Source of the DNA: Escherichia coli
GTDB lineage: Bacteria > Pseudomonadota > Gammaproteobacteria > Enterobacterales > Enterobacteriaceae
Direction: 5' to 3' (one strand)
Assembly: GCF_024700885.2 (NCBI RefSeq)
Contig: NZ_CP117016.1
Length of the DNA: 64,000 bases
Shown piece by piece: positions 7,077 through 21,842 of this stretch. Below the pieces are notes generated by a model, which had not been told where the DNA came from, made no database searches, and worked only from the letters and a program-made list of their open reading frames with translations. Position 1 is the first letter of the stretch. Each line of letters begins with the position of its first letter. Both the position numbers and the translations under genes were made by a program.

Positions 7077-8903
7077 ATGCATTATATGAAGTGGATTTAT
7101 CCACGCCGCTTACGCAATCAAATGATCCTGATGGCAATCCTGATGGTCATTGTCCCAACGCTTACTATTGGTTATATCGTAGAAACGGAAGGACGTTCAG
7201 CAGTCTTATCTGAAAAAGAGAAAAAACTTTCTGCCGTGGTCAACCTGCTTAATCAGGCACTAGGCGATCGCTATGATCTCTACATCGACTTACCACGTGA
7301 GGAGCGTATCCGCGCATTAAATGCAGAACTTGCCCCCATTACCGAAAATATCACTCACGCCTTCCCTGGCATCGGCGCTGGTTATTACAACAAAACGCTG
7401 GATGCGATAATCACCTACGCGCCTTCAGCGCTATATCAGAATAATGTCGGCGTTACCATTGCCGCAGATCACCCTGGTCGCGAAGTCATGCGTACAAATA
7501 CCCCTTTGGTTTATTCAGGCAGGCAGGTGCGCGGCGATATTTTGAATTCAATGATCCCCATTGAGCGTAATGGTGAAATCCTCGGCTATATCTGGGCCAA
7601 TGAATTAACCGAAGATATTCGCCGCCAGGCCTGGAAAATGGATGTGAGGATTATCATTGTGCTCACCGCCGGTTTGCTGATAAGCCTGCTGTTGATTGTC
7701 CTTTTCTCCCGTCGCCTGAGCGCCAATATTGATATCATCACCGATGGCCTCTCGACTCTGGCGCAAAATATTCCCACTCGATTACCACAATTGCCCGGTG
7801 AAATGGGGCAAATCAGTCAGAGTGTTAACAACCTCGCCCAGGCACTGCGTGAAACGCGGACACTTAACGATCTGATTATTGAAAACGCTGCCGATGGCGT
7901 CATTGCCATTGACCGCCAGGGTGATGTAACCACCATGAACCCGGCAGCAGAAGTCATCACTGGCTATCAACGTCATGAACTGGTAGGGCAGCCTTACTCC
8001 ATGTTGTTCGACAATACTCAGTTCTACAGTCCAGTACTGGATACGCTGGAACATGGCACCGAACATGTAGCGCTGGAGATCAGTTTTCCAGGCCGTGACC
8101 GCACCATTGAACTCAGTGTCACTACCAGTCGTATTCATAACACGCATGGTGAAATGATAGGTGCTTTGGTGATTTTCTCTGATTTAACTGCCCGCAAAGA
8201 AACCCAGCGCCGCATGGCGCAAGCAGAACGCCTCGCCACACTGGGTGAGCTGATGGCTGGCGTCGCGCATGAAGTACGTAATCCGCTAACGGCTATTCGT
8301 GGTTATGTACAGATCTTGCGCCAACAAACCGGTGACCCAATACATCAGGAATATCTGTCCGTAGTACTCAAAGAAATCGATTCAATTAACAAAGTTATTC
8401 AGCAATTGCTCGAATTTTCACGTCCACGCCACAGTCAATGGCAACAAGTCAGCCTCAATGCATTGGTTGAAGAAACTCTGGTACTGGTACAAACCGCTGG
8501 CGTACAAGCGCGGATCGACTTCATAAGCGAACTGGATAATGAATTAAGCCCGATTAACGCCGATCGTGAACTGCTCAAACAGGTACTACTGAATATCCTG
8601 ATCAATGCCGTCCAGGCTATCAGTGCACGAGGGAAAATTCGCATTCGAACCTGGCAGTACAGCGACTCACAACAGGCCATTTCGATAGAGGACAACGGCT
8701 GTGGCATTGATCTCTCGCTGCAAAAAAAGATCTTCGATCCCTTTTTCACTACCAAAGCCTCAGGAACCGGGCTTGGTCTGGCGTTAAGTCAACGCATCAT
8801 TAATGCCCATCAGGGTGATATTCGCGTCGCCAGTTTGCCGGGCTACGGCGCAACCTTCACGCTTATTTTACCGATCAACCCGCAGGGAAATCAGACTGTA
8901 TGA
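7077..8903 (+). CDS. atoS: Sensor histidine kinase AtoS, 608 aa
   Basis: ATG at 7077 (MHYMKWIYPRRLRNQ...); HAMP/PAS region and H-box (AHEVRNPLTAI); overlaps the atoC start. Confidence 0.9.
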   Translation: MHYMKWIYPRRLRNQMILMAILMVIVPTLTIGYIVETEGRSAVLSEKEKKLSAVVNLLNQALGDRYDLYIDLPREERIRALNAELAPITENITHAFPGIGAGYYNKTLDAIITYAPSALYQNNVGVTIAADHPGREVMRTNTPLVYSGRQVRGDILNSMIPIERNGEILGYIWANELTEDIRRQAWKMDVRIIIVLTAGLLISLLLIVLFSRRLSANIDIITDGLSTLAQNIPTRLPQLPGEMGQISQSVNNLAQALRETRTLNDLIIENAADGVIAIDRQGDVTTMNPAAEVITGYQRHELVGQPYSMLFDNTQFYSPVLDTLEHGTEHVALEISFPGRDRTIELSVTTSRIHNTHGEMIGALVIFSDLTARKETQRRMAQAERLATLGELMAGVAHEVRNPLTAIRGYVQILRQQTGDPIHQEYLSVVLKEIDSINKVIQQLLEFSRPRHSQWQQVSLNALVEETLVLVQTAGVQARIDFISELDNELSPINADRELLKQVLLNILINAVQAISARGKIRIRTWQYSDSQQAISIEDNGCGIDLSLQKKIFDPFFTTKASGTGLGLALSQRIINAHQGDIRVASLPGYGATFTLILPINPQGNQTV

Positions 8904-10285
8904 CTGCTATTAATCGCATCCTTATTGTGGATGATGAAGATAATGTTCGCCGTATGCTGAGCACCGCTTTTGCACTACAAGGATTCGAAACACATTGTGC
9001 GAACAACGGGCGCACAGCATTACACCTGTTTGCCGATATTCACCCTGACGTGGTGTTGATGGATATCCGCATGCCAGAGATGGACGGCATCAAGACACTA
9101 AAGGAGATGCGCAGCCATGAGACACGGACACCCGTTATTCTGATGACGGCCTATGCTGAAGTGGAAACCGCCGTCGAAGCACTACGCTGCGGAGCCTTCG
9201 ACTATGTTATCAAACCGTTTGATCTCGATGAGTTGAATTTAATCGTTCAGCGCGCTTTACAACTCCAGTCAATGAAAAAAGAGATCCGTCATCTGCACCA
9301 GGCACTGAGCACCAGCTGGCAATGGGGGCACATTCTCACCAACAGCCCGGCGATGATGGACATCTGCAAAGACACCGCCAAAATTGCCCTTTCTCAGGCC
9401 AGCGTCTTGATTAGCGGTGAAAGCGGCACCGGGAAAGAGTTGATTGCCAGAGCGATTCACTACAATTCGCGGCGGGCAAAGGGGCCGTTCATTAAAGTCA
9501 ACTGCGCGGCGCTGCCGGAATCGTTGCTCGAAAGTGAACTGTTTGGTCATGAAAAAGGGGCATTTACTGGTGCACAAACCTTGCGTCAGGGATTATTTGA
9601 ACGTGCCAACGAAGGTACTCTGCTCCTCGACGAAATTGGCGAAATGCCGCTGGTACTGCAAGCCAAATTACTACGCATTCTGCAGGAACGGGAATTTGAA
9701 CGGATTGGCGGCCATCAGACCATAAAAGTTGATATCCGCATCATTGCTGCCACCAACCGCGACTTGCAGGCAATGGTGAAAGAAGGCACCTTCCGTGAAG
9801 ATCTCTTTTATCGCCTTAACGTTATTCATTTAATACTGCCGCCTCTGCGCGATCGCCGGGAAGATATTTCCCTGTTAGCTAATCACTTTTTGCAAAAATT
9901 CAGTAGTGAGAATCAGCGCGATATTATCGACATCGATCCGATGGCAATGTCACTGCTTACCGCCTGGTCATGGCCGGGAAATATTCGAGAGCTTTCCAAC
10001 GTTATTGAACGCGCCGTCGTGATGAATTCAGGCCCGATCATTTTTTCTGAGGATCTTCCGCCGCAGATTCGTCAGCCAGTCTGTAATGCTGGCGAGGTAA
10101 AAACATCCCCTGTCGGAGAGCGTAATTTAAAAGAGGAAATTAAACGCGTCGAAAAACGCATCATTATGGAAGTGCTGGAACAACAAGAAGGAAACCGAAC
10201 CCGCACTGCTTTAATGCTGGGCATCAGTCGCCGTGCATTGATGTATAAACTCCAGGAATACGGTATCGATCCGGCGGATGTATAA
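8900..10285 (+). CDS. atoC: Sigma-54-dependent response regulator AtoC, 461 aa
   Basis: Receiver domain, AAA+ sigma-54 activator core (GESGTGKE, GAFTGA motif) and C-terminal HTH; ATG at 8900 overlaps the atoS stop. Confidence 0.92.
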   Translation: MTAINRILIVDDEDNVRRMLSTAFALQGFETHCANNGRTALHLFADIHPDVVLMDIRMPEMDGIKTLKEMRSHETRTPVILMTAYAEVETAVEALRCGAFDYVIKPFDLDELNLIVQRALQLQSMKKEIRHLHQALSTSWQWGHILTNSPAMMDICKDTAKIALSQASVLISGESGTGKELIARAIHYNSRRAKGPFIKVNCAALPESLLESELFGHEKGAFTGAQTLRQGLFERANEGTLLLDEIGEMPLVLQAKLLRILQEREFERIGGHQTIKVDIRIIAATNRDLQAMVKEGTFREDLFYRLNVIHLILPPLRDRREDISLLANHFLQKFSSENQRDIIDIDPMAMSLLTAWSWPGNIRELSNVIERAVVMNSGPIIFSEDLPPQIRQPVCNAGEVKTSPVGERNLKEEIKRVEKRIIMEVLEQQEGNRTRTALMLGISRRALMYKLQEYGIDPADV

Positions 10286-10296
10286 CGCCAAAACTT

Positions 10297-10337
10297 GCTA
10301 TGCAGAAATTTGCACAGTGCGCAATTTTCTGCATAGC
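10297..10337 (+). promoter_or_regulatory. AtoC upstream activating site: 20-bp inverted repeat pair
   Basis: GCTATGCAGAAATTTGCACA-GTGCGCAATTTTCTGCATAGC is a near-perfect palindrome about 100 bp upstream of the sigma-54 promoter. Confidence 0.6.
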
Positions 10338-10419
10338 CGCTCATTCTCCTTATAAATCCCCATCCAATTTATCCCTTCATATTCAATTAGTTAAATAACA
10401 ACATTCAATAATCTCATTC

Positions 10420-10435
10420 TGGCACTCCCCTTGCT
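10420..10435 (+). promoter_or_regulatory. Sigma-54 (-24/-12) promoter of atoDAEB
   Basis: TGGCAC-N5-TTGCT with GG-to-GC spacing matching the RpoN consensus, 45 bp upstream of the atoD ATG. Confidence 0.6.
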
Positions 10436-10480
10436 ATTCCCTGACTGTACCCACAACGGTGTATGCAAGAGGGATAAAAA

Positions 10481-11143
10481 ATGAAAACAAAATTGATGAC
10501 ATTACAAGACGCCACCGGCTTCTTTCGTGACGGCATGACCATCATGGTGGGCGGATTTATGGGGATTGGCACTCCATCCCGCCTGGTTGAAGCATTACTG
10601 GAATCTGGTGTTCGCGACCTGACATTGATAGCCAATGATACCGCGTTTGTTGATACTGGCATCGGTCCGCTCATCGTCAATGGTCGAGTCCGCAAAGTGA
10701 TTGCTTCACATATCGGCACCAACCCGGAAACAGGTCGGCGCATGATATCTGGTGAGATGGACGTCGTTCTGGTGCCGCAAGGTACGCTAATCGAGCAAAT
10801 TCGCTGTGGTGGAGCTGGACTTGGTGGTTTTCTCACCCCAACGGGTGTCGGCACCGTCGTAGAGGAAGGCAAACAGACACTGACACTCGACGGTAAAACC
10901 TGGCTGCTCGAACGCCCACTGCGCGCCGACCTGGCGCTAATTCGCGCTCATCGTTGCGACACACTTGGCAACCTGACCTATCACCTTAGCGCCCGCAACT
11001 TTAACCCCCTGATAGCCCTTGCGGCTGATATCACGCTGGTAGAGCCAGATGAACTGGTCGAAACCGGCGAGCTGCAACCTGACCATATTGTCACCCCTGG
11101 TGCCGTTATCGACCACATCATCGTTTCACAGGAGAGCAAATAA
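10481..11143 (+). CDS. atoD: Acetate/acetoacetate CoA-transferase alpha subunit AtoD, 220 aa
   Basis: 220-aa [29 protein letters not shown]; operon context. Confidence 0.9.
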
Positions 11144-11793
11144 TGGATGCGAAACAACGTATTGCGCGCCGTGTGGCGCAAGAGCTTCGTGATGGTGACA
11201 TCGTTAACTTAGGGATCGGTTTACCCACAATGGTCGCCAATTATTTACCGGAGGGTATTCATATCACTCTGCAATCGGAAAACGGCTTCCTCGGTTTAGG
11301 CCCGGTCACGACAGCGCATCCAGATCTGGTGAACGCTGGCGGGCAACCGTGCGGTGTTTTACCCGGTGCAGCCATGTTTGATAGCGCCATGTCATTTGCG
11401 CTAATCCGCGGCGGTCATATTGATGCCTGCGTGCTCGGCGGTTTGCAAGTAGACGAAGAAGCAAACCTCGCGAACTGGGTAGTGCCTGGGAAAATGGTGC
11501 CCGGTATGGGTGGCGCGATGGATCTGGTGACCGGGTCGCGCAAAGTGATCATCGCCATGGAACATTGTGCCAAAGATGGTTCAGCAAAAATTTTGCGCCG
11601 CTGCACCATGCCACTCACTGCGCAACATGCGGTGCATATGCTGGTTACTGAACTGGCTGTCTTTCGTTTTATTGACGGCAAAATGTGGCTCACCGAAATT
11701 GCCGACGGGTGTGATTTAGCCACCGTGCGTGCCAAAACCGAAGCTCGGTTTGAAGTCGCCGCCGATCTGAATACGCAACGGGGTGATTTATGA
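11143..11793 (+). CDS. atoA: Acetate/acetoacetate CoA-transferase beta subunit AtoA, 216 aa
   Basis: 216-aa [31 protein letters not shown]; start overlaps the atoD stop. Confidence 0.9.
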   Translation: MDAKQRIARRVAQELRDGDIVNLGIGLPTMVANYLPEGIHITLQSENGFLGLGPVTTAHPDLVNAGGQPCGVLPGAAMFDSAMSFALIRGGHIDACVLGGLQVDEEANLANWVVPGKMVPGMGGAMDLVTGSRKVIIAMEHCAKDGSAKILRRCTMPLTAQHAVHMLVTELAVFRFIDGKMWLTEIADGCDLATVRAKTEARFEVAADLNTQRGDL

Positions 11794-13112
11794 TTGGTCG
11801 CATATCGCGTTTTATGACGCGTTTTGTCAGCCGGTGGCTTCCCGATCCACTGATCTTTGCCATGTTGCTGACATTGCTAACTTTCGTGATCGCGCTTTGG
11901 TTAACACCACAAACGCCGATCAGCATGGTGAAAATGTGGGGTGACGGTTTCTGGAACTTGCTGGCGTTTGGTATGCAGATGGCGCTTATCATCGTTACCG
12001 GTCATGCCCTTGCCAGCTCTGCTCCGGTAAAAAGTTTGCTGCGTACTGCCGCCTCCGCCGCAAAGACGCCCGTACAGGGCGTCATGCTGGTTACTTTCTT
12101 CGGTTCAGTCGCTTGTGTCATCAACTGGGGATTTGGTTTGGTTGTCGGCGCAATGTTTGCCCGTGAAGTCGCCCGCCGAGTACCCGGTTCTGATTATCCG
12201 TTGCTCATTGCCTGCGCCTACATTGGTTTTCTCACCTGGGGTGGCGGTTTCTCTGGCTCAATGCCTCTGTTGGCTGCAACACCGGGCAACCCGGTTGAGC
12301 ATATCGCCGGGCTGATCCCGGTGGGCGATACTCTGTTCAGTGGTTTTAACATTTTCATCACTGTGGCGTTGATTGTGGTGATGCCATTTATCACCCGCAT
12401 GATGATGCCAAAACCGTCTGACGTGGTGAGTATCGATCCGAAACTACTCATGGAAGAGGCTGATTTCCAAAAGCAGCTACCGAAAGATGCCCCACCATCC
12501 GAGCGACTGGAAGAAAGCCGCATTCTGACGTTGATCATCGGCGCACTCGGTATCGCTTACCTTGCGATGTACTTCAGCGAACATGGCTTCAACATCACCA
12601 TCAATACCGTCAACCTGATGTTTATGATTGCGGGTCTGCTGCTACATAAAACGCCAATGGCTTATATGCGTGCTATCAGCGCGGCAGCACGCAGTACTGC
12701 CGGTATTCTAGTGCAATTCCCCTTCTACGCTGGGATCCAACTGATGATGGAGCATTCCGGTCTGGGCGGACTCATTACCGAATTCTTCATCAATGTTGCG
12801 AACAAAGACACCTTCCCGGTAATGACCTTTTTTAGTTCTGCACTGATTAACTTCGCCGTTCCGTCTGGCGGCGGTCACTGGGTTATTCAGGGACCTTTCG
12901 TGATACCCGCAGCCCAGGCGCTGGGCGCTGATCTTGGTAAATCGGTAATGGCGATCGCCTACGGCGAGCAATGGATGAACATGGCACAACCATTCTGGGC
13001 GCTGCCAGCACTGGCAATCGCCGGACTCGGTGTCCGCGACATCATGGGCTATTGCATCACTGCCCTGCTCTTCTCCGGCGTCATTTTCGTCATTGGTTTA
13101 ACGCTGTTCTGA
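11790..13112 (+). CDS. atoE: Short-chain fatty acid transporter AtoE, 440 aa
   Basis: 440-aa polytopic membrane protein; start overlaps the atoA stop. Confidence 0.9.
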   Translation: MIGRISRFMTRFVSRWLPDPLIFAMLLTLLTFVIALWLTPQTPISMVKMWGDGFWNLLAFGMQMALIIVTGHALASSAPVKSLLRTAASAAKTPVQGVMLVTFFGSVACVINWGFGLVVGAMFAREVARRVPGSDYPLLIACAYIGFLTWGGGFSGSMPLLAATPGNPVEHIAGLIPVGDTLFSGFNIFITVALIVVMPFITRMMMPKPSDVVSIDPKLLMEEADFQKQLPKDAPPSERLEESRILTLIIGALGIAYLAMYFSEHGFNITINTVNLMFMIAGLLLHKTPMAYMRAISAAARSTAGILVQFPFYAGIQLMMEHSGLGGLITEFFINVANKDTFPVMTFFSSALINFAVPSGGGHWVIQGPFVIPAAQALGADLGKSVMAIAYGEQWMNMAQPFWALPALAIAGLGVRDIMGYCITALLFSGVIFVIGLTLF

Positions 13113-14438: not shown

Positions 14439-17075
14439 TTACTCGTCAGCGTCGTCTGCGACATCATCGTCGCTTTCCACTTCCGGAGCGATTTCATCGT
14501 CCCCTTCCGCGGCACTGCCATCGATGGTATCCAGATCTTCCTCGTCAACCGGTTCAGCAACACGTTGCAGACCCACTACGTTTTCATCTTCCGCAGTACG
14601 GATGAGGATCACGCCCTGGGTGTTACGACCTACGATGCTGATTTCCGAAACGCGAGTACGTACCAGCGTACCGGCATCAGTGATCATCATGATCTGGTCG
14701 CAGTCATCTACCTGCACCGCGCCAACCACTAAACCGTTACGTTCGGTAACCTTGATGGAGATAACCCCTTTCGTCGCACGCGACTTAGTCGGGTATTCCG
14801 CCACTGCGGTACGTTTACCATAACCGTTCTGCGTTGCGGTGAGGATTGCGCCATCGCCACGAGGCACGATCAGAGAGACGACTTTATCGCCTTCACCTAA
14901 GCGAATACCGCGAACACCGGTGGTGTTGCAGCCCATCGCACGGACAGAAGACTCTTTAAAGCGCACCACTTTACCTTCGGCGGAGAACAGCATTACTTCA
15001 TCTTCGCCGCTGGTCAGGTCAACGCCGATCAGCTCATCGCCTTCAACCAGTTTGATCGCCACTTTACCGGCGGTACGCAGACGGTTGAATTCGGTGAGGA
15101 CGGTTTTCTTAACAGTACCGTTAGCGGTCGCCATGAAGACTTTCACGCCTTCTTCAAACTCGGTCACCGGCAGGATCGCGGTGATACGTTCGTCCTGCTC
15201 CAGCGGCAGCAGGTTGACAATCGGACGACCGCGCGCGCCACGAGTGGCTTCCGGCAACTGATAGACTTTCATCGAATAGACGCGACCACGGCTGGAGAAG
15301 CACAGAATATGGTCGTGGGTGTTCGCCACCAGCAGTCGGTCAATAAAGTCTTCTTCTTTAATACGTGCGGCAGATTTGCCTTTCCCGCCACGACGCTGCG
15401 CTTCGTATTCAGAAAGCGGCTGATACTTCACGTAGCCCTGGTGAGAGAGCGTCACAACCACATCTTCCTGAGTGATCAGATCTTCCAGGTTGATGTCTGC
15501 GCTGTTGGCGGTGATTTCAGTGCGACGTTTGTCACCGAACTGTTCACGAACCAGTTCCAGCTCTTCGCGGATCACTTCCATCAGACGATCGGCACTGCCA
15601 AGAATACGCAGCAGTTCTGCGATCTGATCCAGCAGCTCTTTATATTCGTCGAGCAGTTTTTCGTGCTCAAGGCCGGTCAGTTTCTGCAAACGCAGATCCA
15701 GAATCGCCTGGGCTTGCTGTTCGGTCAGGTAGTACAGACCGTCACGCACGCCGAACTCTGGCTCCAGCCATTCCGGACGCGCAGCATCATCGCCCGCACG
15801 TTCGAGCATGGCGGCAACGTTGCCCAACTGCCACGGATTAGCAACCAGCGCAGTTTTCGCTTCTGCAGGCGTCGGCGCATGACGGATCAGTTCGATGATC
15901 GGGTCGATGTTCGCCAGCGCCACGGCTAATGCTTCAAGGATATGAGCACGATCGCGAGCTTTACGCAGTTCGAAAATAGTACGACGGGTCACCACTTCAC
16001 GGCGGTGACGAACAAACGCCGCGATGATGTCTTTCAGGTTCATGATCTTCGGCTGACCATGGTGCAATGCCACCATGTTGATACCGAAAGAAACCTGCAA
16101 CTGGGTCTGGGAGTAGAGGTTGTTAAGCACAACTTCACCGACCGCATCGCGTTTCACTTCAATCACGATGCGCATACCGTCTTTGTCAGACTCGTCACGC
16201 AGCGCGCTGATGCCTTCCACGCGTTTTTCTTTTACCAGTTCCGCAATCTTCTCGATCAGGCGCGCTTTGTTCACCTGATACGGAATTTCGTGGACGATAA
16301 TGGTTTCACGTCCGGTTTTGGCGTCAACTTCCACTTCAGCACGGGCGCGGATATATACCTTGCCGCGACCGGTACGGTAAGCTTCTTCAATACCGCGACG
16401 ACCATTAATGATTGCCGCCGTCGGGAAGTCCGGCCCAGGAATGTGTTCCATCAGCCCTTCAATGCTGATGTCTTCATCATCGATATACGCCAGACAACCG
16501 TTGATGACTTCCGTCAGGTTGTGCGGCGGGATGTTGGTTGCCATACCTACGGCGATACCGGAAGAACCGTTCACCAGCAGGTTAGGAATTTTGGTTGGCA
16601 TGACGTCGGGAATTTTTTCCGTGCCGTCATAGTTATCAACGAAATCGACCGTCTCTTTTTCGAGATCGGCCATCAGTTCATGGGCAATTTTCGCCAGACG
16701 GATTTCCGTATAACGCATTGCCGCCGCAGAGTCGCCGTCGATGGAACCGAAGTTACCCTGACCGTCTACCAGCATGTAACGCAGCGAGAATGGCTGCGCC
16801 ATACGGACGATCGTGTCATAAACCGCCAAGTCACCATGGGGATGGTATTTACCGATTACGTCACCAACGACACGGGCAGATTTTTTATAGGCTTTGTTCC
16901 AGTCATTGCCTAGTACGTTCATGGCGTAAAGTACGCGACGGTGTACCGGCTTCAGGCCATCTCGGACATCTGGCAGCGCACGGCCAACAATGACCGACAT
17001 CGCATAATCCAGATAGGAGCTCTTCAGCTCTTCCTCAATGTTGACCGGTGTAATTTCTCTCGCAAGGTCGCTCAT
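14439..17075 (-). CDS. gyrA: DNA gyrase subunit A, 878 aa, carrying Ser83Leu (quinolone-resistance-determining region)
   Basis: [21 protein letters not shown]...; residues 80-87 read HGDLAVYD (wild type HGDSAVYD); codon 83 is TTG at 16829-16827 on the minus strand; Asp87 unchanged. Confidence 0.97.
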
Positions 17076-18083: not shown

Positions 18084-21000
18084 TTACCATTTCACCGTCA
18101 TCGACAAAAACCCTGCCGTCTGGGCAAAATCATCACTCCCTTTCTGCCACGCCACGCTACCACGCAGGGACACTCGCTGACTGATATTGCCCGTGACTCC
18201 CACTTTTAATTCACCCCGTTGCTTCACCGCATCGTCACTGATAGTGCTGCCATCTTCTTCAATTTCCGTCGCATGCGGATCGTGATAATAATTCAGATCT
18301 AATGTTGGTATGACATGAACAGCGGTACGCCATTCGCTGTGTAAACCCAGCCGCGTTTGAATATCATCACCCTGCGATTGTGACACGCGCGCATGGTTAG
18401 CGGCGGTAAAATCATCCTGCTGCACGCCCTGATAAATCACCTGCGCCTGCGGTTCAATCACCACACCACGCCCCGGTAACCACTGATACCCGGCTTCCAG
18501 CGAGGCGATAATCCCCGATGAGTGGTAATGATCCACGCCATCTTCATGTTCGGAAACATCATTGTTAAACCACGCGTATTGCAGCCAGCTATCCAGCCAG
18601 GCCCCCTGCTTCTGATTACCGTGCTGAAACCAGCTTGAGGTCAGACCAACGGCATAACCGTGGTTCTGGTTATCGGCGCGAGTTCCGGTCATATTCGAGC
18701 GGCTGTCGCCCTGGTTATCACTGTAGCCACCAACCGCCCCAAGCATCCACTCGCCATCCGTGCCCCAGCACCCGCTAAACAAGTCGCCGCTAAGCTGCAC
18801 CGTAGAAGTGTCTTCATGCTGAGCCAGTTGCCCCGCTGCTGTGTAATGATAATCTCCGCCGATAACACGTAAATTCAGCGTCTGACCATCGCCACCAGCG
18901 TGATCGTGTCGCTCCATCACAAACGCCTGATTTGCCGCCCGCAGGTTATTAAAATATCCACCAACTTTGGCATTCAACACCGGCTGGTAGGCAGGCGTAG
19001 GGTCCGGGGCCGGGTCGGGTGTTGGATCAGGATCCGGCGTGGGATCAGGATCGGGAGTCGGGTCTGGATCAGGTGGCGATGGTGGCGTTACTTCTTGCGA
19101 TCGCAGATACCAGTCGTTGTTATCTTCCACCAGCGTGTAGTCATATGCTCCCATATTGACGTAGCCGCTGCCTGCCAGACTGAATTGCGCATTGTTTTGA
19201 AACTGCGTTGGATCGGCTGCGAAATCAACCACTTTAATGCCTGTCGATGTCGGCTCACCAATCCCTGTAATGGAGTTAACCATCACAGTTGTGTTGCCAG
19301 CAGTATTACCGTTCATCACCAATTGATCGCTTACCGAGTCATCGCCGTTTAATTCGCTATCGAGCAGTAGCGTACCACCGCCGGTATAATCACCGTTTAC
19401 CGTCAGCGTGTCGCCAGCGACGCCATTTTGCAGGCTGACCGCACCGGACGTATTGGTCAGATTGCCATTAACTGTTACGTCGGAAAGATAAGTCAGGCTG
19501 TCAGTTTCAAGGTTGGTATTAAGCTCGCCTGTCAACGTCACGCCATCGGTGGCATTCACCAGCGTCCCATCGCCGTTAAACAGTGAGGCATTAAGGGCGA
19601 TGGAAGTATCCTGCCCGGTCAGGCGCAAAACCGTACCATCGCTGATGTCGATAGTGCCGCTGGAAGTAACATCAATTGACTGAATATCCTGATCCGCGCC
19701 AGTCTTGAACGTTGCCCCGTCACCGACCCACAGCGACGAAGCATAAGGGAAGATATCCGCTACATCGCCTTGCAGCGTGCCTTCTTCGACACGTACCGCC
19801 GACTGCGTCGTACCACTGGCGGTCATTTCCAGCGTACCCGCTCCCGTTTTAGTCAATGTGCTACCCTCATCCAGATGCTGCCCGCTGCTGTCAGCCATCA
19901 GTGCGCCCCACTGCGTGTCTACCCCCGCATCAACCGCCACTTCACCGTCGGCGCGCATTTCAATATCACGCCCGTGACCTGCTGCCTCTGAACGAGTATC
20001 AACGTCAGCGGTAATTTCCATCTCACTTTGTTGTTGGCTATCAGTAAAGATGAGCTGACGGTTTTCGTCGGTATTGCCAAGCTGCGAGTTGTCGCTCACC
20101 ACCAGCGTACCGGAAGCGATTTGCGTGGTGCCCAGGTAACTATTATTGTTTGCCAGGCTAACCAGCCCGTCGCCCGCATCGATCACCACGTAGACGCCAT
20201 CTTTCTCGTCGCCGCCGATATGCAAATTGTCGCCACCTGCGAGATCCACCACATCCTGACTGCCGATAACCGTACCGCCGCTGCCGCTGACTGCAAGGCC
20301 ATCGTTGTATGATGTGCCGCTCTGCCAGGTGGCGAAATCAGAGAGATCAAGCACGCCGCCGTTTAACACGATCGACTGCGGATCGTCCTGGAGAGCGGCA
20401 AGATCTGCCGCGTCGCCTTCCAGCGTAAGCACCGCGCCATCATCAACGACTATATCGCCAGTTAGCGCCATCGACTGAGCCCCTGCCAGCACGTAGCTGC
20501 CGTTTTGCGCAATGGTGAGCTGACCAGCACCTTCGATGGTGCCAGCAAAACTGCCCTGATTAACAGTAACGTTGCCACCAGCATCGATATTTAAAGTGCC
20601 ATTCTGAAAGCCCGTCAATGCGTGCACAAAAGTTTGTTGGGTCGAGCCAACGTTTAGCTCAGCCTGATTCTGATACTGATCAAGACTCCCTATCGTCAGA
20701 CCGTAGCAGTCTTGCGGATCGTCCTGGCAATGAGTATCTCCGACATTCATCAGGGAGTTGCTGCGACCCAGGGTAACCTCACCGTTTTCTATCTGCATCT
20801 CGCCAGTAAAGTCATTGTTATCTGCATTAAGTACCAGATCGCCGGAACCTGTTTTGGTGATTACCCCGGTACCAGCAATAGAGTCAACAACTCCGTCATT
20901 CTCTGTATTGCCGATAACCAGCGTTTTTCCGTCGGCAATATCAAAGGTAACTTCACTTAAGCCGAGATACATAAAGCCGCCCGCCTCAGTGGAAGGACCA

Positions 21001-21842
21001 TCCCCATAACCTGCTGCGCTGTTGTTCTCATCCACTAACACGCCGTTGTTCTGGCTGTAGCTGTCATCAACTGAAATATCAATAAGATAGGGAGCCGTCA
21101 CGCTATTGGTATAAATCGCCCCACCATATCCCTCAGCAGAGTTATTTGTAAATGCGGTGTTATTTATTATTGTGAAACCTGACGGATGCGTGATATTGCT
21201 ATTATTATCGGTGACATCGATTGCCCCTCCATCGCCATCACTGTAACTTGTTGATGTATATGCCTGGTTGTTATCAAAAATAACTTCACTTAAATAGACG
21301 TCATTGTTGATGGTATAAATTGCACCACCTTTGCCGTCATTAGCGATGTTATTGCGAAACACGGCGTTAGTGACACTTAAATCGACGACACCGGTATCGT
21401 TAGTACCAGAAGAATAGATTGCGCCACCATAGCCACCTGCAACGTTACCGGAAAAAATAACATTAGTAAGATTCAGCGTTGAGTTTTCTTTAGCAAATAT
21501 TGCCCCGCCGTTATTATATTCTCCTGAGACAGTATTATTGGCAAACAGAGTCATTCCAGTTTCATTTTCTGGCGATAGAGAAAACTCCGCTCCTTGTTGC
21601 AAAAATACGGCCCCACCGCTGGCGTTATTGGTCATATCCGAAAAAACCAGCCATTGCCCATCGGCGATGCTCCAGTCCTGCGTAATGCCTGAAAGGCTTT
21701 GCCTGCTGGCGTGACAACTCGCTTTGATATCATATCCCTGACATGAATCAATGGCCGCCGCGACACCGTTAGCAGAGAAAAGAGATGCAATCATTGACGG
21801 GAGTAAAGATAAATACTCCTTGCGTAGAAAAATAATCCGCAT
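18084..21842 (-). CDS. yfaL: AIDA-I-type autotransporter adhesin YfaL, 1252 aa
   Basis: 1252-aa ORF MRIIFLRKEYLSLLPSMIASLFSA (signal peptide); repetitive passenger domain; proline-rich PDPDPT linker; C-terminal beta-barrel ending ...SMTVKW. Confidence 0.9.
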   Translation of the reverse strand: MRIIFLRKEYLSLLPSMIASLFSANGVAAAIDSCQGYDIKASCHASRQSLSGITQDWSIADGQWLVFSDMTNNASGGAVFLQQGAEFSLSPENETGMTLFANNTVSGEYNNGGAIFAKENSTLNLTNVIFSGNVAGGYGGAIYSSGTNDTGVVDLSVTNAVFRNNIANDGKGGAIYTINNDVYLSEVIFDNNQAYTSTSYSDGDGGAIDVTDNNSNITHPSGFTIINNTAFTNNSAEGYGGAIYTNSVTAPYLIDISVDDSYSQNNGVLVDENNSAAGYGDGPSTEAGGFMYLGLSEVTFDIADGKTLVIGNTENDGVVDSIAGTGVITKTGSGDLVLNADNNDFTGEMQIENGEVTLGRSNSLMNVGDTHCQDDPQDCYGLTIGSLDQYQNQAELNVGSTQQTFVHALTGFQNGTLNIDAGGNVTVNQGSFAGTIEGAGQLTIAQNGSYVLAGAQSMALTGDIVVDDGAVLTLEGDAADLAALQDDPQSIVLNGGVLDLSDFATWQSGTSYNDGLAVSGSGGTVIGSQDVVDLAGGDNLHIGGDEKDGVYVVIDAGDGLVSLANNNSYLGTTQIASGTLVVSDNSQLGNTDENRQLIFTDSQQQSEMEITADVDTRSEAAGHGRDIEMRADGEVAVDAGVDTQWGALMADSSGQHLDEGSTLTKTGAGTLEMTASGTTQSAVRVEEGTLQGDVADIFPYASSLWVGDGATFKTGADQDIQSIDVTSSGTIDISDGTVLRLTGQDTSIALNASLFNGDGTLVNATDGVTLTGELNTNLETDSLTYLSDVTVNGNLTNTSGAVSLQNGVAGDTLTVNGDYTGGGTLLLDSELNGDDSVSDQLVMNGNTAGNTTVMVNSITGIGEPTSTGIKVVDFAADPTQFQNNAQFSLAGSGYVNMGAYDYTLVEDNNDWYLRSQEVTPPSPPDPDPTPDPDPTPDPDPTPDPAPDPTPAYQPVLNAKVGGYFNNLRAANQAFVMERHDHAGGDGQTLNLRVIGGDYHYTAAGQLAQHEDTSTVQLSGDLFSGCWGTDGEWMLGAVGGYSDNQGDSRSNMTGTRADNQNHGYAVGLTSSWFQHGNQKQGAWLDSWLQYAWFNNDVSEHEDGVDHYHSSGIIASLEAGYQWLPGRGVVIEPQAQVIYQGVQQDDFTAANHARVSQSQGDDIQTRLGLHSEWRTAVHVIPTLDLNYYHDPHATEIEEDGSTISDDAVKQRGELKVGVTGNISQRVSLRGSVAWQKGSDDFAQTAGFLSMTVKW
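19005..19100. repeat. Tandem short repeats encoding the proline-rich (PDPDPT)n linker inside yfaL
   Basis: Protein segment PPSPPDPDPTPDPDPTPDPDPTPDPAPDPTP; the DNA shows near-identical GGATC(A/C)GGA-type units. Confidence 0.6.

Follow-up and report, generated by a model that had tools for sequence, protein, structure and literature searches.

Two questions are raised by the proline-rich stretch of the autotransporter gene yfaL in the window (throughout, the whole 64,000-nucleotide stretch of Escherichia coli DNA that was analysed), namely whether it is a linker between the passenger and the β-barrel, and whether its DNA repeats make its length vary, as a reading made from the letters alone had proposed. 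We consider it highly probable (about 0.8) that the tract is a Pro/Asp/Thr-rich spacer of the AIDA-I type, which is polymorphic in length through the in-frame gain and loss of units and of which the window carries a stable allele.

The gene itself is securely identified. The coding sequence (positions 18084..21842, minus strand; 1252 residues in the list of open reading frames and its translation) encodes an AIDA-I-family autotransporter adhesin and matches the NCBIfam equivalog NF007285 over its full length (protein residues 1–1252 on model positions 1–1250) with 2760.8 bits against a curated cutoff of 1459, which places it in the YfaL/EhaC equivalog. Its chromosomal position is the one of yfaL, flanked in the window by ubiG/gyrA and nrdAB, and an annotated yfaL that is 100% identical to the window is found in strain 1190, with the RefSeq gene order nrdA-ypaB-yfaL-ubiG-gyrA. 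The protein begins with MRIIFLRKEYLSLLPSMIASLFSANGVAA, a putative signal peptide of the extended kind. A plus-strand open reading frame (18900..19352; 150 residues, GTG start) runs antisense over the proline-rich tract, and we take it as a mechanical reading frame within a well-supported gene. YfaL is a known adhesin of E. coli, usually poorly expressed, and it serves as a surface-display scaffold too.

The domain order of YfaL is that of a classical (type Va) autotransporter, with a β-helical passenger, an autochaperone, a helix, and a PF03797 barrel, besides a match to the AIDA-I transport unit 4MEE (E=2.1e-34); PATR and PMP repeats were also matched by Pfam. The autochaperone domain AC_1 (residues 794–904, positions 19131..19463, minus strand; Pfam PF18883, E=1.6e-18) forms the C-terminal end of the β-helical passenger and aligns with 4MEE and with the IcsA autochaperone structures 3ML3 and 5KE1. 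In the AlphaFold2 (AF2) model of YfaL (pLDDT 93.3, pTM 0.89), the passenger β-strands run to residue 914, and the last hairpin, YDYTLVEDNNDWYLR (residues 900–914, positions 19101..19145, minus strand; strands at 101–108 and 111–115 in query numbering), lies directly upstream of the tract, its motif being kept across the family with Y103, W112, Y113, and L114 (query numbering) invariant or nearly so. On the other side lies a predicted α-helical linker, AKVGGYFNNLRAANQ (residues 958–972, positions 18927..18971, minus strand; query 159–173), a region that aligns with 4MEE from chain residue 150 onwards and that, by analogy with the autotransporter structures described in PMC9289746, would be expected inside the barrel pore. 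The β-barrel translocator follows (residues 988–1251, positions 18090..18881, minus strand; PF03797, TIGR01414, and AF2 strands at query 189–452), with PF03797 matched at residues 991–1230 (E=1.9e-33) and TIGR01414 at E=1.5e-111.

The tract, PPSPPDPDPTPDPDPTPDPDPTPDPAPDPTP, occupies residues 920–950 (minus strand), and the proline-rich peptide given in the sequence-only reading is found there exactly; its placement at 19005..19100 was off by about 12–15 nucleotides, the true span being 18993..19085. Proline makes up 17 of the 31 residues (55%), compared with 15 of the remaining 1222 residues of YfaL (1.2%), and three exact PDPDPT units follow one another, so the proline enrichment and the repetition are far beyond chance. 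The position is that of a junction, between the end of AC_1 at 904 (or of the hairpin at 914) and the start of the helix at 958. DSSP assignment of the AF2 model gives coil over residues 915–953, the stretch that links the last hairpin to the helix and barrel, and the absence of regular secondary structure that accompanies the proline enrichment is thus a prediction. Nowhere in the model is the confidence lower than in the tract (mean pLDDT 73–85), yet this value is moderate and not very low, so the term “disordered” would go further than the model does. Taken together, AC_1 at 794–904, the β-domain at 991–1230, the alignment with 4MEE, and the predicted coil bear out the earlier description of a proline-rich linker between passenger and barrel.

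A spacer of this kind is not peculiar to YfaL. Among 111 diverse homologues, taken as representatives of clusters at 50% identity, 84 have at least 25% proline at the homologous junction, often in short tandem motifs, and the junction itself has a median length of 37 residues (range 20–96). A direct homologue search gave few distant relatives, its matches being dominated by near-identical fragments of which the majority were partial proteins of Shigella sonnei. The closest solved structure is 4MEE, the AIDA-I transport unit, whose alignment with YfaL flanks the tract, taking in the autochaperone end (...WYLTS) before it and the helix and barrel after it. The junction of AIDA-I has about 11 residues compared with about 42 in YfaL (the tract and its short flanks), which makes the tract an insertion with respect to 4MEE; none of the solved structures covers it. 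In TibA, a self-associating autotransporter of enterotoxigenic E. coli, a proline-rich domain (residues 627–677) separates the junction (autochaperone) region from the membrane-embedded domain (PMC3835316), in the same topological position as the tract of YfaL, although the TibA segment is longer (about 50 residues) and belongs to another passenger subfamily. Our literature search found no paper combining YfaL with “proline-rich”. The YfaL/EhaC proteins of K-12 and O157:H7 are like that of the window in locus (ubiG-nrdA), in domain order, and in having three PDPDPT units.

At the DNA level, the window allele is far from a regular array. Its three 18-nt units, all on the minus strand and all encoding PDPDPT, are CCTGATCCAGACCCGACT (19056..19073), which differs from each of the other two at 5 of 18 positions, CCCGATCCTGATCCCACG (19038..19055), which lies within the array 19024–19070 called by Tandem Repeats Finder, and CCGGATCCTGATCCAACA (19020..19037), which has the 11-nt exact repeat GATCCTGATCC in common with the second unit. 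They are followed by a degenerate tail encoding PDPAPDPTP (18993..19019, minus strand), which by codon-level allele comparison is 6 nt, or two residues, longer than the tail PDPEPTP of K-12, O157, and B; the 701 nt around it are about 95.4–95.7% identical to K-12 and O157. Tandem Repeats Finder describes the tract as having period 18 with 2.6 copies and 82% matches. The pairwise differences between units are 5, 5, and 3 per 18 nt, and the longest exact direct repeat of the allele is 11 nt; “near-identical DNA repeats” was therefore an overstatement for units that are 72–83% identical. All 13 differences fall on third codon positions and are synonymous, so the peptide appears to be preserved by selection, and this exact conservation in the face of DNA drift argues that the PDPDPT pattern is itself constrained.

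The length of the tract differs among strains, contrary to what a single fixed repeat number would predict, and this part of the earlier proposal stands. In samples of 5,419 complete E. coli genomes, we found tract lengths of 60, 72, 78, 96, and 102 nt, all of them in frame, with the 96-nt class making up 67%, the 78-nt class 21%, the 102-nt class (that of the window) 7.5%, the 72-nt class 2.5%, and the 60-nt class less than 1%. These shares come from the lengths of aligned spans in two spread samples of 60 matches each (120 in all), and the tracts were read directly in about 14–16 small fetched regions; every fetched coding sequence with an altered tract length is open and annotated as intact yfaL. 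We abandoned an allele census by identity bands with short allele-specific queries, given that overlapping BLAST pieces get joined, a synthetic four-copy query even scoring 100% on two-copy alleles (record span 238), and record spans together with fetched sequences were used instead. At an assumed 3.1 Å per residue, a fully extended tract would cover about 5.3–9.6 nm over the observed range, and any adjustment of how far the adhesin projects from the surface, as had been suggested, may therefore amount to about 4 nm at most.

Evidence of recent unit gain and loss comes from an allele family other than that of the window, found in 1,233 genomes, whose 18-nt units are perfect and present in one, two, or three copies. 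Two copies are the rule, in 57 of 60 sampled members (about 95%). Over 16.3 kb, the one-, two-, and three-copy haplotypes differ by 1–4 SNPs and by no other indel: O111:H8 TW05614 (one copy) and O111:NM 14614 (two copies) are separated by a single SNP without another indel, and strains 97_3250 (two copies) and 2313 (three copies) by 3 SNPs. Likewise, AR0374 and DEC9B have no difference in 699 nt of flank and yet are one 18-nt unit apart. The one-copy alleles occur on two flanking haplotypes, as do the three-copy alleles. Judged by these haplotype comparisons, this family has recently gained or lost whole 18-nt units. Alleles with four or more units were absent from the 60 sampled members, and a four-copy allele was also absent from the 60 matches listed for the synthetic four-copy query, where one could hide among tied matches. 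In contrast, the window allele type (102 nt, about 7.5% of genomes) kept its length in 60 of its 60 closest relatives. The longest exact repeat is 20–38 nt in the perfect-unit family versus 11 nt in the window allele, a contrast of unstable perfect and stable imperfect units that rests on two allele families and to which lineage effects may contribute. The expectation that such a tract is prone to length variation thus holds across strains and within the perfect-unit family, and is not borne out among the 60 closest relatives of the very allele in which it was formulated. With about 95% of even the perfect-unit family keeping two copies, the variation reads as a slow polymorphism and not as a fast switch.

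We judge it very unlikely that the tract is a switch like a contingency locus or a Periscope protein, whose fast, adaptive changes in length would raise or retract the adhesin relative to LPS or capsule. Such a switch would fit the unit numbers that differ between almost identical haplotypes and recur on different flanking backgrounds, and for other adhesins the notion that repeat number tunes surface exposure is established (PMC9704523). In Periscope proteins, in-frame changes in repeat number alter a stalk that bears a distal domain, and the variability tracks the identity of the DNA repeats (PMC9704523); in yfaL, repeat number does vary among close relatives along with DNA identity, the perfect units varying and the degenerate ones being invariant. 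Nevertheless, a Periscope stalk consists of many highly identical repeats, each of them a domain that folds independently, whereas the PDPDPT unit of YfaL is a predicted coil of six residues and about 2 nm, present in only one to three copies with four-copy alleles missing from the sampled and listed alleles, and the shortest and longest observed tracts are at most about 4 nm apart. The dominance of two copies in the perfect-repeat family and the invariance of the 60 nearest relatives of the degenerate window allele also speak against a switch. Phase variation by change of frame or promoter spacing is rejected because the units are of 18 or 6 nt and all length classes are in frame, and the long identical array of a contingency locus is not what is seen here, with three units at 72–83% identity in the window and three perfect units as the maximum elsewhere. 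A further idea, slightly less likely again than the fast switch, is that the spacer length is selected to match the thickness of the O-antigen or capsule, so that gain and loss of PDPDPT would be a miniature, non-domain “periscope” and the contrast of perfect and scrambled units would reflect selection on evolvability.

The opposite possibility, that the length classes are old lineage-specific alleles spread by recombination without ongoing gain or loss of units, we hold to be about as improbable as that last idea. It accounts well for the 96-nt class being common to K-12, B, O157:H7, and the divergent alleles of SF-173 and FDAARGOS_1251 (89.9% and 88.7% identical to the window over the 701-nt query), for the 102-nt and 72-nt classes appearing in groups of matches of equal identity to the query, and for the invariance of the window type in close relatives. 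It is already contradicted for the perfect-repeat family, where one, two, and three copies stand on haplotypes 1–4 SNPs apart, AR0374 and DEC9B differ by a unit between identical flanks, and both the one-copy and the three-copy alleles sit on two flank haplotypes each. Still less probable is immune selection on an exposed epitope, instead of spacing, as the driver of the variation. The model for it is Bordetella pertactin, whose R1 and R2 are short proline-rich tandem repeats with slow-timescale differences in copy number among alleles, like those of YfaL (PMC8931430), and amino acid substitutions between the tract alleles of YfaL do exist (S/L at PPSPP, P to Q in O157, and D/E/A/I near the tail). 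However, R1 and R2 have other motifs and are loops on or near the β-helix, whereas the tract of YfaL is at the passenger–barrel junction; for pertactin, selection by immunity in the vaccine era has been suggested, with nothing comparable known for YfaL; none of the antibodies in the pertactin study engaged R1 or R2 (PMC8931430); and unit differences that are all synonymous in the window are the opposite of diversifying selection. Artefacts of assembly or sequencing are an extremely improbable source of the length differences, even though short-read Shigella sonnei assemblies do break within the tract, given that in finished genomes every difference falls at a unit boundary and is an exact multiple of 6 or 18 nt, that at least 22 independent one-copy assemblies exist and about 1,000 two-copy genomes are indicated, and that the reading frames stay open and annotated as intact.

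In the preferred reading, that of an AIDA-I-type spacer polymorphic by in-frame unit gain and loss, the tract would connect the folded end of the passenger (the autochaperone cap, to residue 914) with the α-helix 958–972, which would plug the 12-stranded outer-membrane barrel. The tract is most likely extended and non-globular on the cell surface, where it would keep the β-helical adhesin off the barrel, and its length may influence adhesion. Strain differences in length would arise when replication slippage, or unequal recombination between units, adds or removes whole 18-nt units or 6-nt sub-units in frame, at a frequency presumably set by how identical the units are. We infer slippage from the pattern of unit changes, although the same pattern would result from unequal homologous recombination or from gene conversion between alleles. 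Because drift has altered the units of the window allele at synonymous sites and left the peptide exact, the window would hold a stable 31-residue version and not an active switch.

In summary, the tract is real, ordinary, and already known in kind, given that proline-rich junction spacers are common in the family of YfaL, and beyond housekeeping it is of little importance. A modest practical point is that yfaL alleles come in length classes of 17–31 spacer residues, which is relevant to typing or to display constructs. The locus also offers a clean case from nature in which the purity of a repeat governs its indel rate, given that perfect 18-nt units still change their copy number, while synonymously diverged units for the same peptide do not.

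The proline-rich tract lies in a minus-strand ORF of 1252 codons (18084..21842 in the ORF list), identified as yfaL/ehaC by its full-length match to the NCBIfam equivalog NF007285 (2760.8 bits vs. a cutoff of 1459), and YfaL has been grouped with MisL, ShdA, IcsA, and EhaA in the Group 8 adhesin autotransporters (PMC9289746). The RefSeq-annotated yfaL of strain 1190, 100% identical to the window across the region, is flanked by nrdA/ypaB on one side and by ubiG/gyrA on the other. Antisense to yfaL and crossing the tract is an ORF of 150 aa with a GTG start (18900..19352, plus strand), probably a mechanical ORF. In the vicinity, gyrA (14439..17075, minus strand) encodes 878 aa vs. the 875 normally found; the acidic tail at the C-terminus of the protein (14439..14492) differs from the ...EIAPEVDVDDEPEEE of DEC9B/K-12-like strains, and the longer form is also the one that RefSeq annotates in strain 1190. 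The glpQ-inaA interval of strain 1190, which is of the window's strain type (8507..12263 of its fetched region, L024), carries a hypothetical gene with a frameshift, an intact regulator of the LysR family, and an MFS transporter; in O26/O111-type strains (L015, 1754..2095), it holds only short pseudogene remnants.

The translated ORF contains, exactly, the peptide quoted by the sequence-only reading, PPSPPDPDPTPDPDPTPDPDPTPDPAPDPTP, at residues 920-950 (18993..19085, minus strand); the limits of 19005..19100 given by that reading were thus off by about 12-15 nt. Proline makes up 17 of the 31 residues of the tract vs. 15 of the 1222 in the remainder of the protein, and this richness is no chance feature. 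The placement between passenger and beta-barrel was also correct, with the Pfam autochaperone domain AC_1 (residues 794-904) on one side and the autotransporter beta-domain (991-1230) on the other. In a structure predicted for residues 800-1252 from an alignment of 85 sequences (mean pLDDT 93.3, pTM 0.89), the beta-strands end with a last hairpin, YDYTLVEDNNDWYLR (900-914), followed by a continuous coil that encloses the tract (915-953) and has the model's lowest confidence (block means 73-85), an alpha-helix (958-972), and the barrel (988-1251). The nearest solved structure, 4MEE (the AIDA-I transport unit), matches YfaL before and after the tract (query 9-118 with chain 29-138; 161-447 with chain 150-463), and because the alignment breaks at the tract, the junction is seen to measure about 11 residues in AIDA-I vs. 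about 42 in YfaL. By this alignment, the tract is an insertion relative to AIDA-I, precisely where the passenger cap meets the pore helix.

When 5,426 complete E. coli genomes were searched with a 701-nt query that includes the tract, 5,419 gave a match and 7 gave none for the yfaL region; one match sits on a record classed as plasmid. Two samples of 60 rows each were drawn at even spacing from the ranking, and in these 120 rows, the lengths of the aligned spans gave tracts of 96 nt (80 rows), 78 nt (25), 102 nt, which is the window's type (9), 72 nt (3), and 60 nt (1), while the weakest match, one genome present in both samples, has a large deletion. In the 14 fetched examples whose tracts were read directly, every length difference lies within the tract and in frame, so the repeat number is not identical in all alleles, and the expected variability among strains is borne out.

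Tandem Repeats Finder reports a period of 18 nt and 2.6 copies in the window allele, whose three minus-strand PDPDPT units are CCTGATCCAGACCCGACT (19056-19073), CCCGATCCTGATCCCACG (19038-19055), and CCGGATCCTGATCCAACA (19020-19037). The peptide units are perfect, with a DNA identity of just 72-83%; since the units differ pairwise at 5, 5, and 3 of 18 positions and the longest exact direct repeat is 11 nt (GATCCTGATCC), their description as near-identical DNA repeats was overstated. All 13 differences are synonymous and at third codon positions, which means that selection has kept the peptide units as the DNA drifted; this same divergence takes away most of the slippage substrate in the window allele.

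The tracts sort into two allele families. The first, with synonymously diverged units and a tract ending in ...PDPEPTP or ...PDPAPDPTP, comprises the alleles of the window, K-12, B, and O157:H7 together with two more divergent ones, SF-173 (89.9% identity to the window over the 701-nt query) and FDAARGOS_1251 (88.7%); a 96-nt tract is common to K-12, B, O157, SF-173, and FDAARGOS_1251, and the window's 102-nt type is of equal length in 60 of 60 closest relatives, which are 98.9-100% identical over 281 nt. The allele of O157:H7 strain 3384 (L002) has a Pro-to-Gln change inside the repeat (PDPDPTQDPDPT, CCG to CAG). The second family, found in 1,233 genomes with a family-specific query, ends in ...PDPIP and carries one, two, or three copies of the perfect unit CCTGACCCAACACCCGAT. 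In a 60-row sample, 57 alleles had two copies (3 of these have SNPs and were called from two sequenced examples), one had three, and two had one; four-copy alleles were absent from this sample. Exact repeats reach 20 nt in alleles with two copies and 38 nt in those with three, vs. a maximum of 11 nt in the window.

We consider it likely, with a probability of roughly 80%, that the tract is an extended extracellular spacer linking the folded passenger to the pore helix, and that the number of units in its short in-frame DNA repeat shifts slowly, through slippage or through unequal exchange among units, with a rate dependent on unit identity. The view that the length classes are only old lineage alleles fits the window's family well, but it is contradicted for the perfect-unit family, where copies 1, 2, and 3 occur on haplotypes 1-4 SNPs apart over 16.3 kb of flank: TW05614 O111:H8 (one copy) and 14614 O111:NM (two) differ by 1 SNP with no further indel, 97_3250 (two) and 2313 (three) by 3 SNPs, and DEC9B (one) and 2313 by 4, while AR0374 (two) and DEC9B show no difference in a 699-nt flank. 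These unit changes are recent and, within the sample, are confined to perfect-unit alleles; moreover, because one-copy and three-copy alleles each lie on two distinct upstream haplotypes, the sequences suggest that gain and loss happened repeatedly. The length instability originally proposed is thus seen in the perfect-unit family and not in the window type, which is invariant in its closest relatives and has so short an exact repeat; slippage itself we infer as the mechanism.

The tract is unlikely to be a fast switch of the contingency or Periscope type, given that all length changes are in frame, that there are just 1-3 units, that about 95% of the variable family keeps two copies, that the window allele does not vary in its relatives, and that YfaL units are not folded domains as the Periscope definition has it (PMC9704523). 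That the peptide units are conserved exactly argues against immune-driven variation, and an assembly artefact is excluded, since exact unit-sized differences recur across many finished genomes.

Other deletions also meet the tract. In VTB97022v (L006, junction near position 236), an in-frame deletion of 168 nt runs between two copies of the 12-nt direct repeat CTGATCCCACGC; one copy belongs to the autochaperone region (FAADPT) and the other to the tract. The deletion takes out the passenger's last hairpin in a gene still annotated as intact, and it is recent, given flanks that match K-12 at 99.8% identity. By inspection, the 72-nt allele corresponds to the loss of 24 nt between repeats of GATCC. 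A metagenomic YfaL fragment of 445 aa (P0009) has YDYT fused to PAYQP and lacks both the DWYLRSQ end of the hairpin and the tract in its entirety. The tract of strain A8 (L026) has a D-to-N change giving PDPNPT, and the yfaL of that strain, which contains an internal stop, is annotated as a pseudogene. In Shigella sonnei, many short-read assemblies give partial YfaL proteins, and the tract sequence also reads PPNPNPTPDPDPT; since one contig ends within the tract at ...CCGGATCCTG (L020, 1780..1909) and another starts at CGGCCCCTACGCCT (L021/L023, 1..40), an insertion is suggested there, probably an IS element.

The gene, its architecture, and linkers of this kind are already known, and the tract is also in the K-12 reference protein; we found no discussion of the YfaL tract specifically in the open-access literature. 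What we add is small, a count of tract lengths among strains and a comparison of perfect with degenerate alleles, and does not amount to a new kind of feature. Distant relatives (29-38% identity) all have, between the conserved motifs ...NWYL(T/R)S and ...RPE..Y..N, a segment that is P-[D/E/T]-rich. When 1.84 billion cluster representatives were searched, both anchor motifs were present in 111 of the top hits, with junctions of 20-96 aa (median 37) and, in 84 of them, at least 25% proline, frequently arranged in short tandem motifs (for example PDPTPEPT, PQPQP, and PEPEP). In TibA, a segment at the equivalent position, between its junction region and membrane domain, bears the name “proline-rich domain” (PMC3835316), and in pertactin, the proline-rich repeat regions vary in copy number among alleles on a slow timescale (PMC8931430). 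The YfaL tract is thus a typical case of a widespread feature. We infer an extended polyproline-like conformation, and any functional effect of tract length would be putative; at an assumed 3.1 A per residue, 17-31 residues would span about 5.3-9.6 nm, or about 1.9 nm per unit, and it is plausible that tract length may adjust, on a small scale, how far the adhesin projects from the cell.
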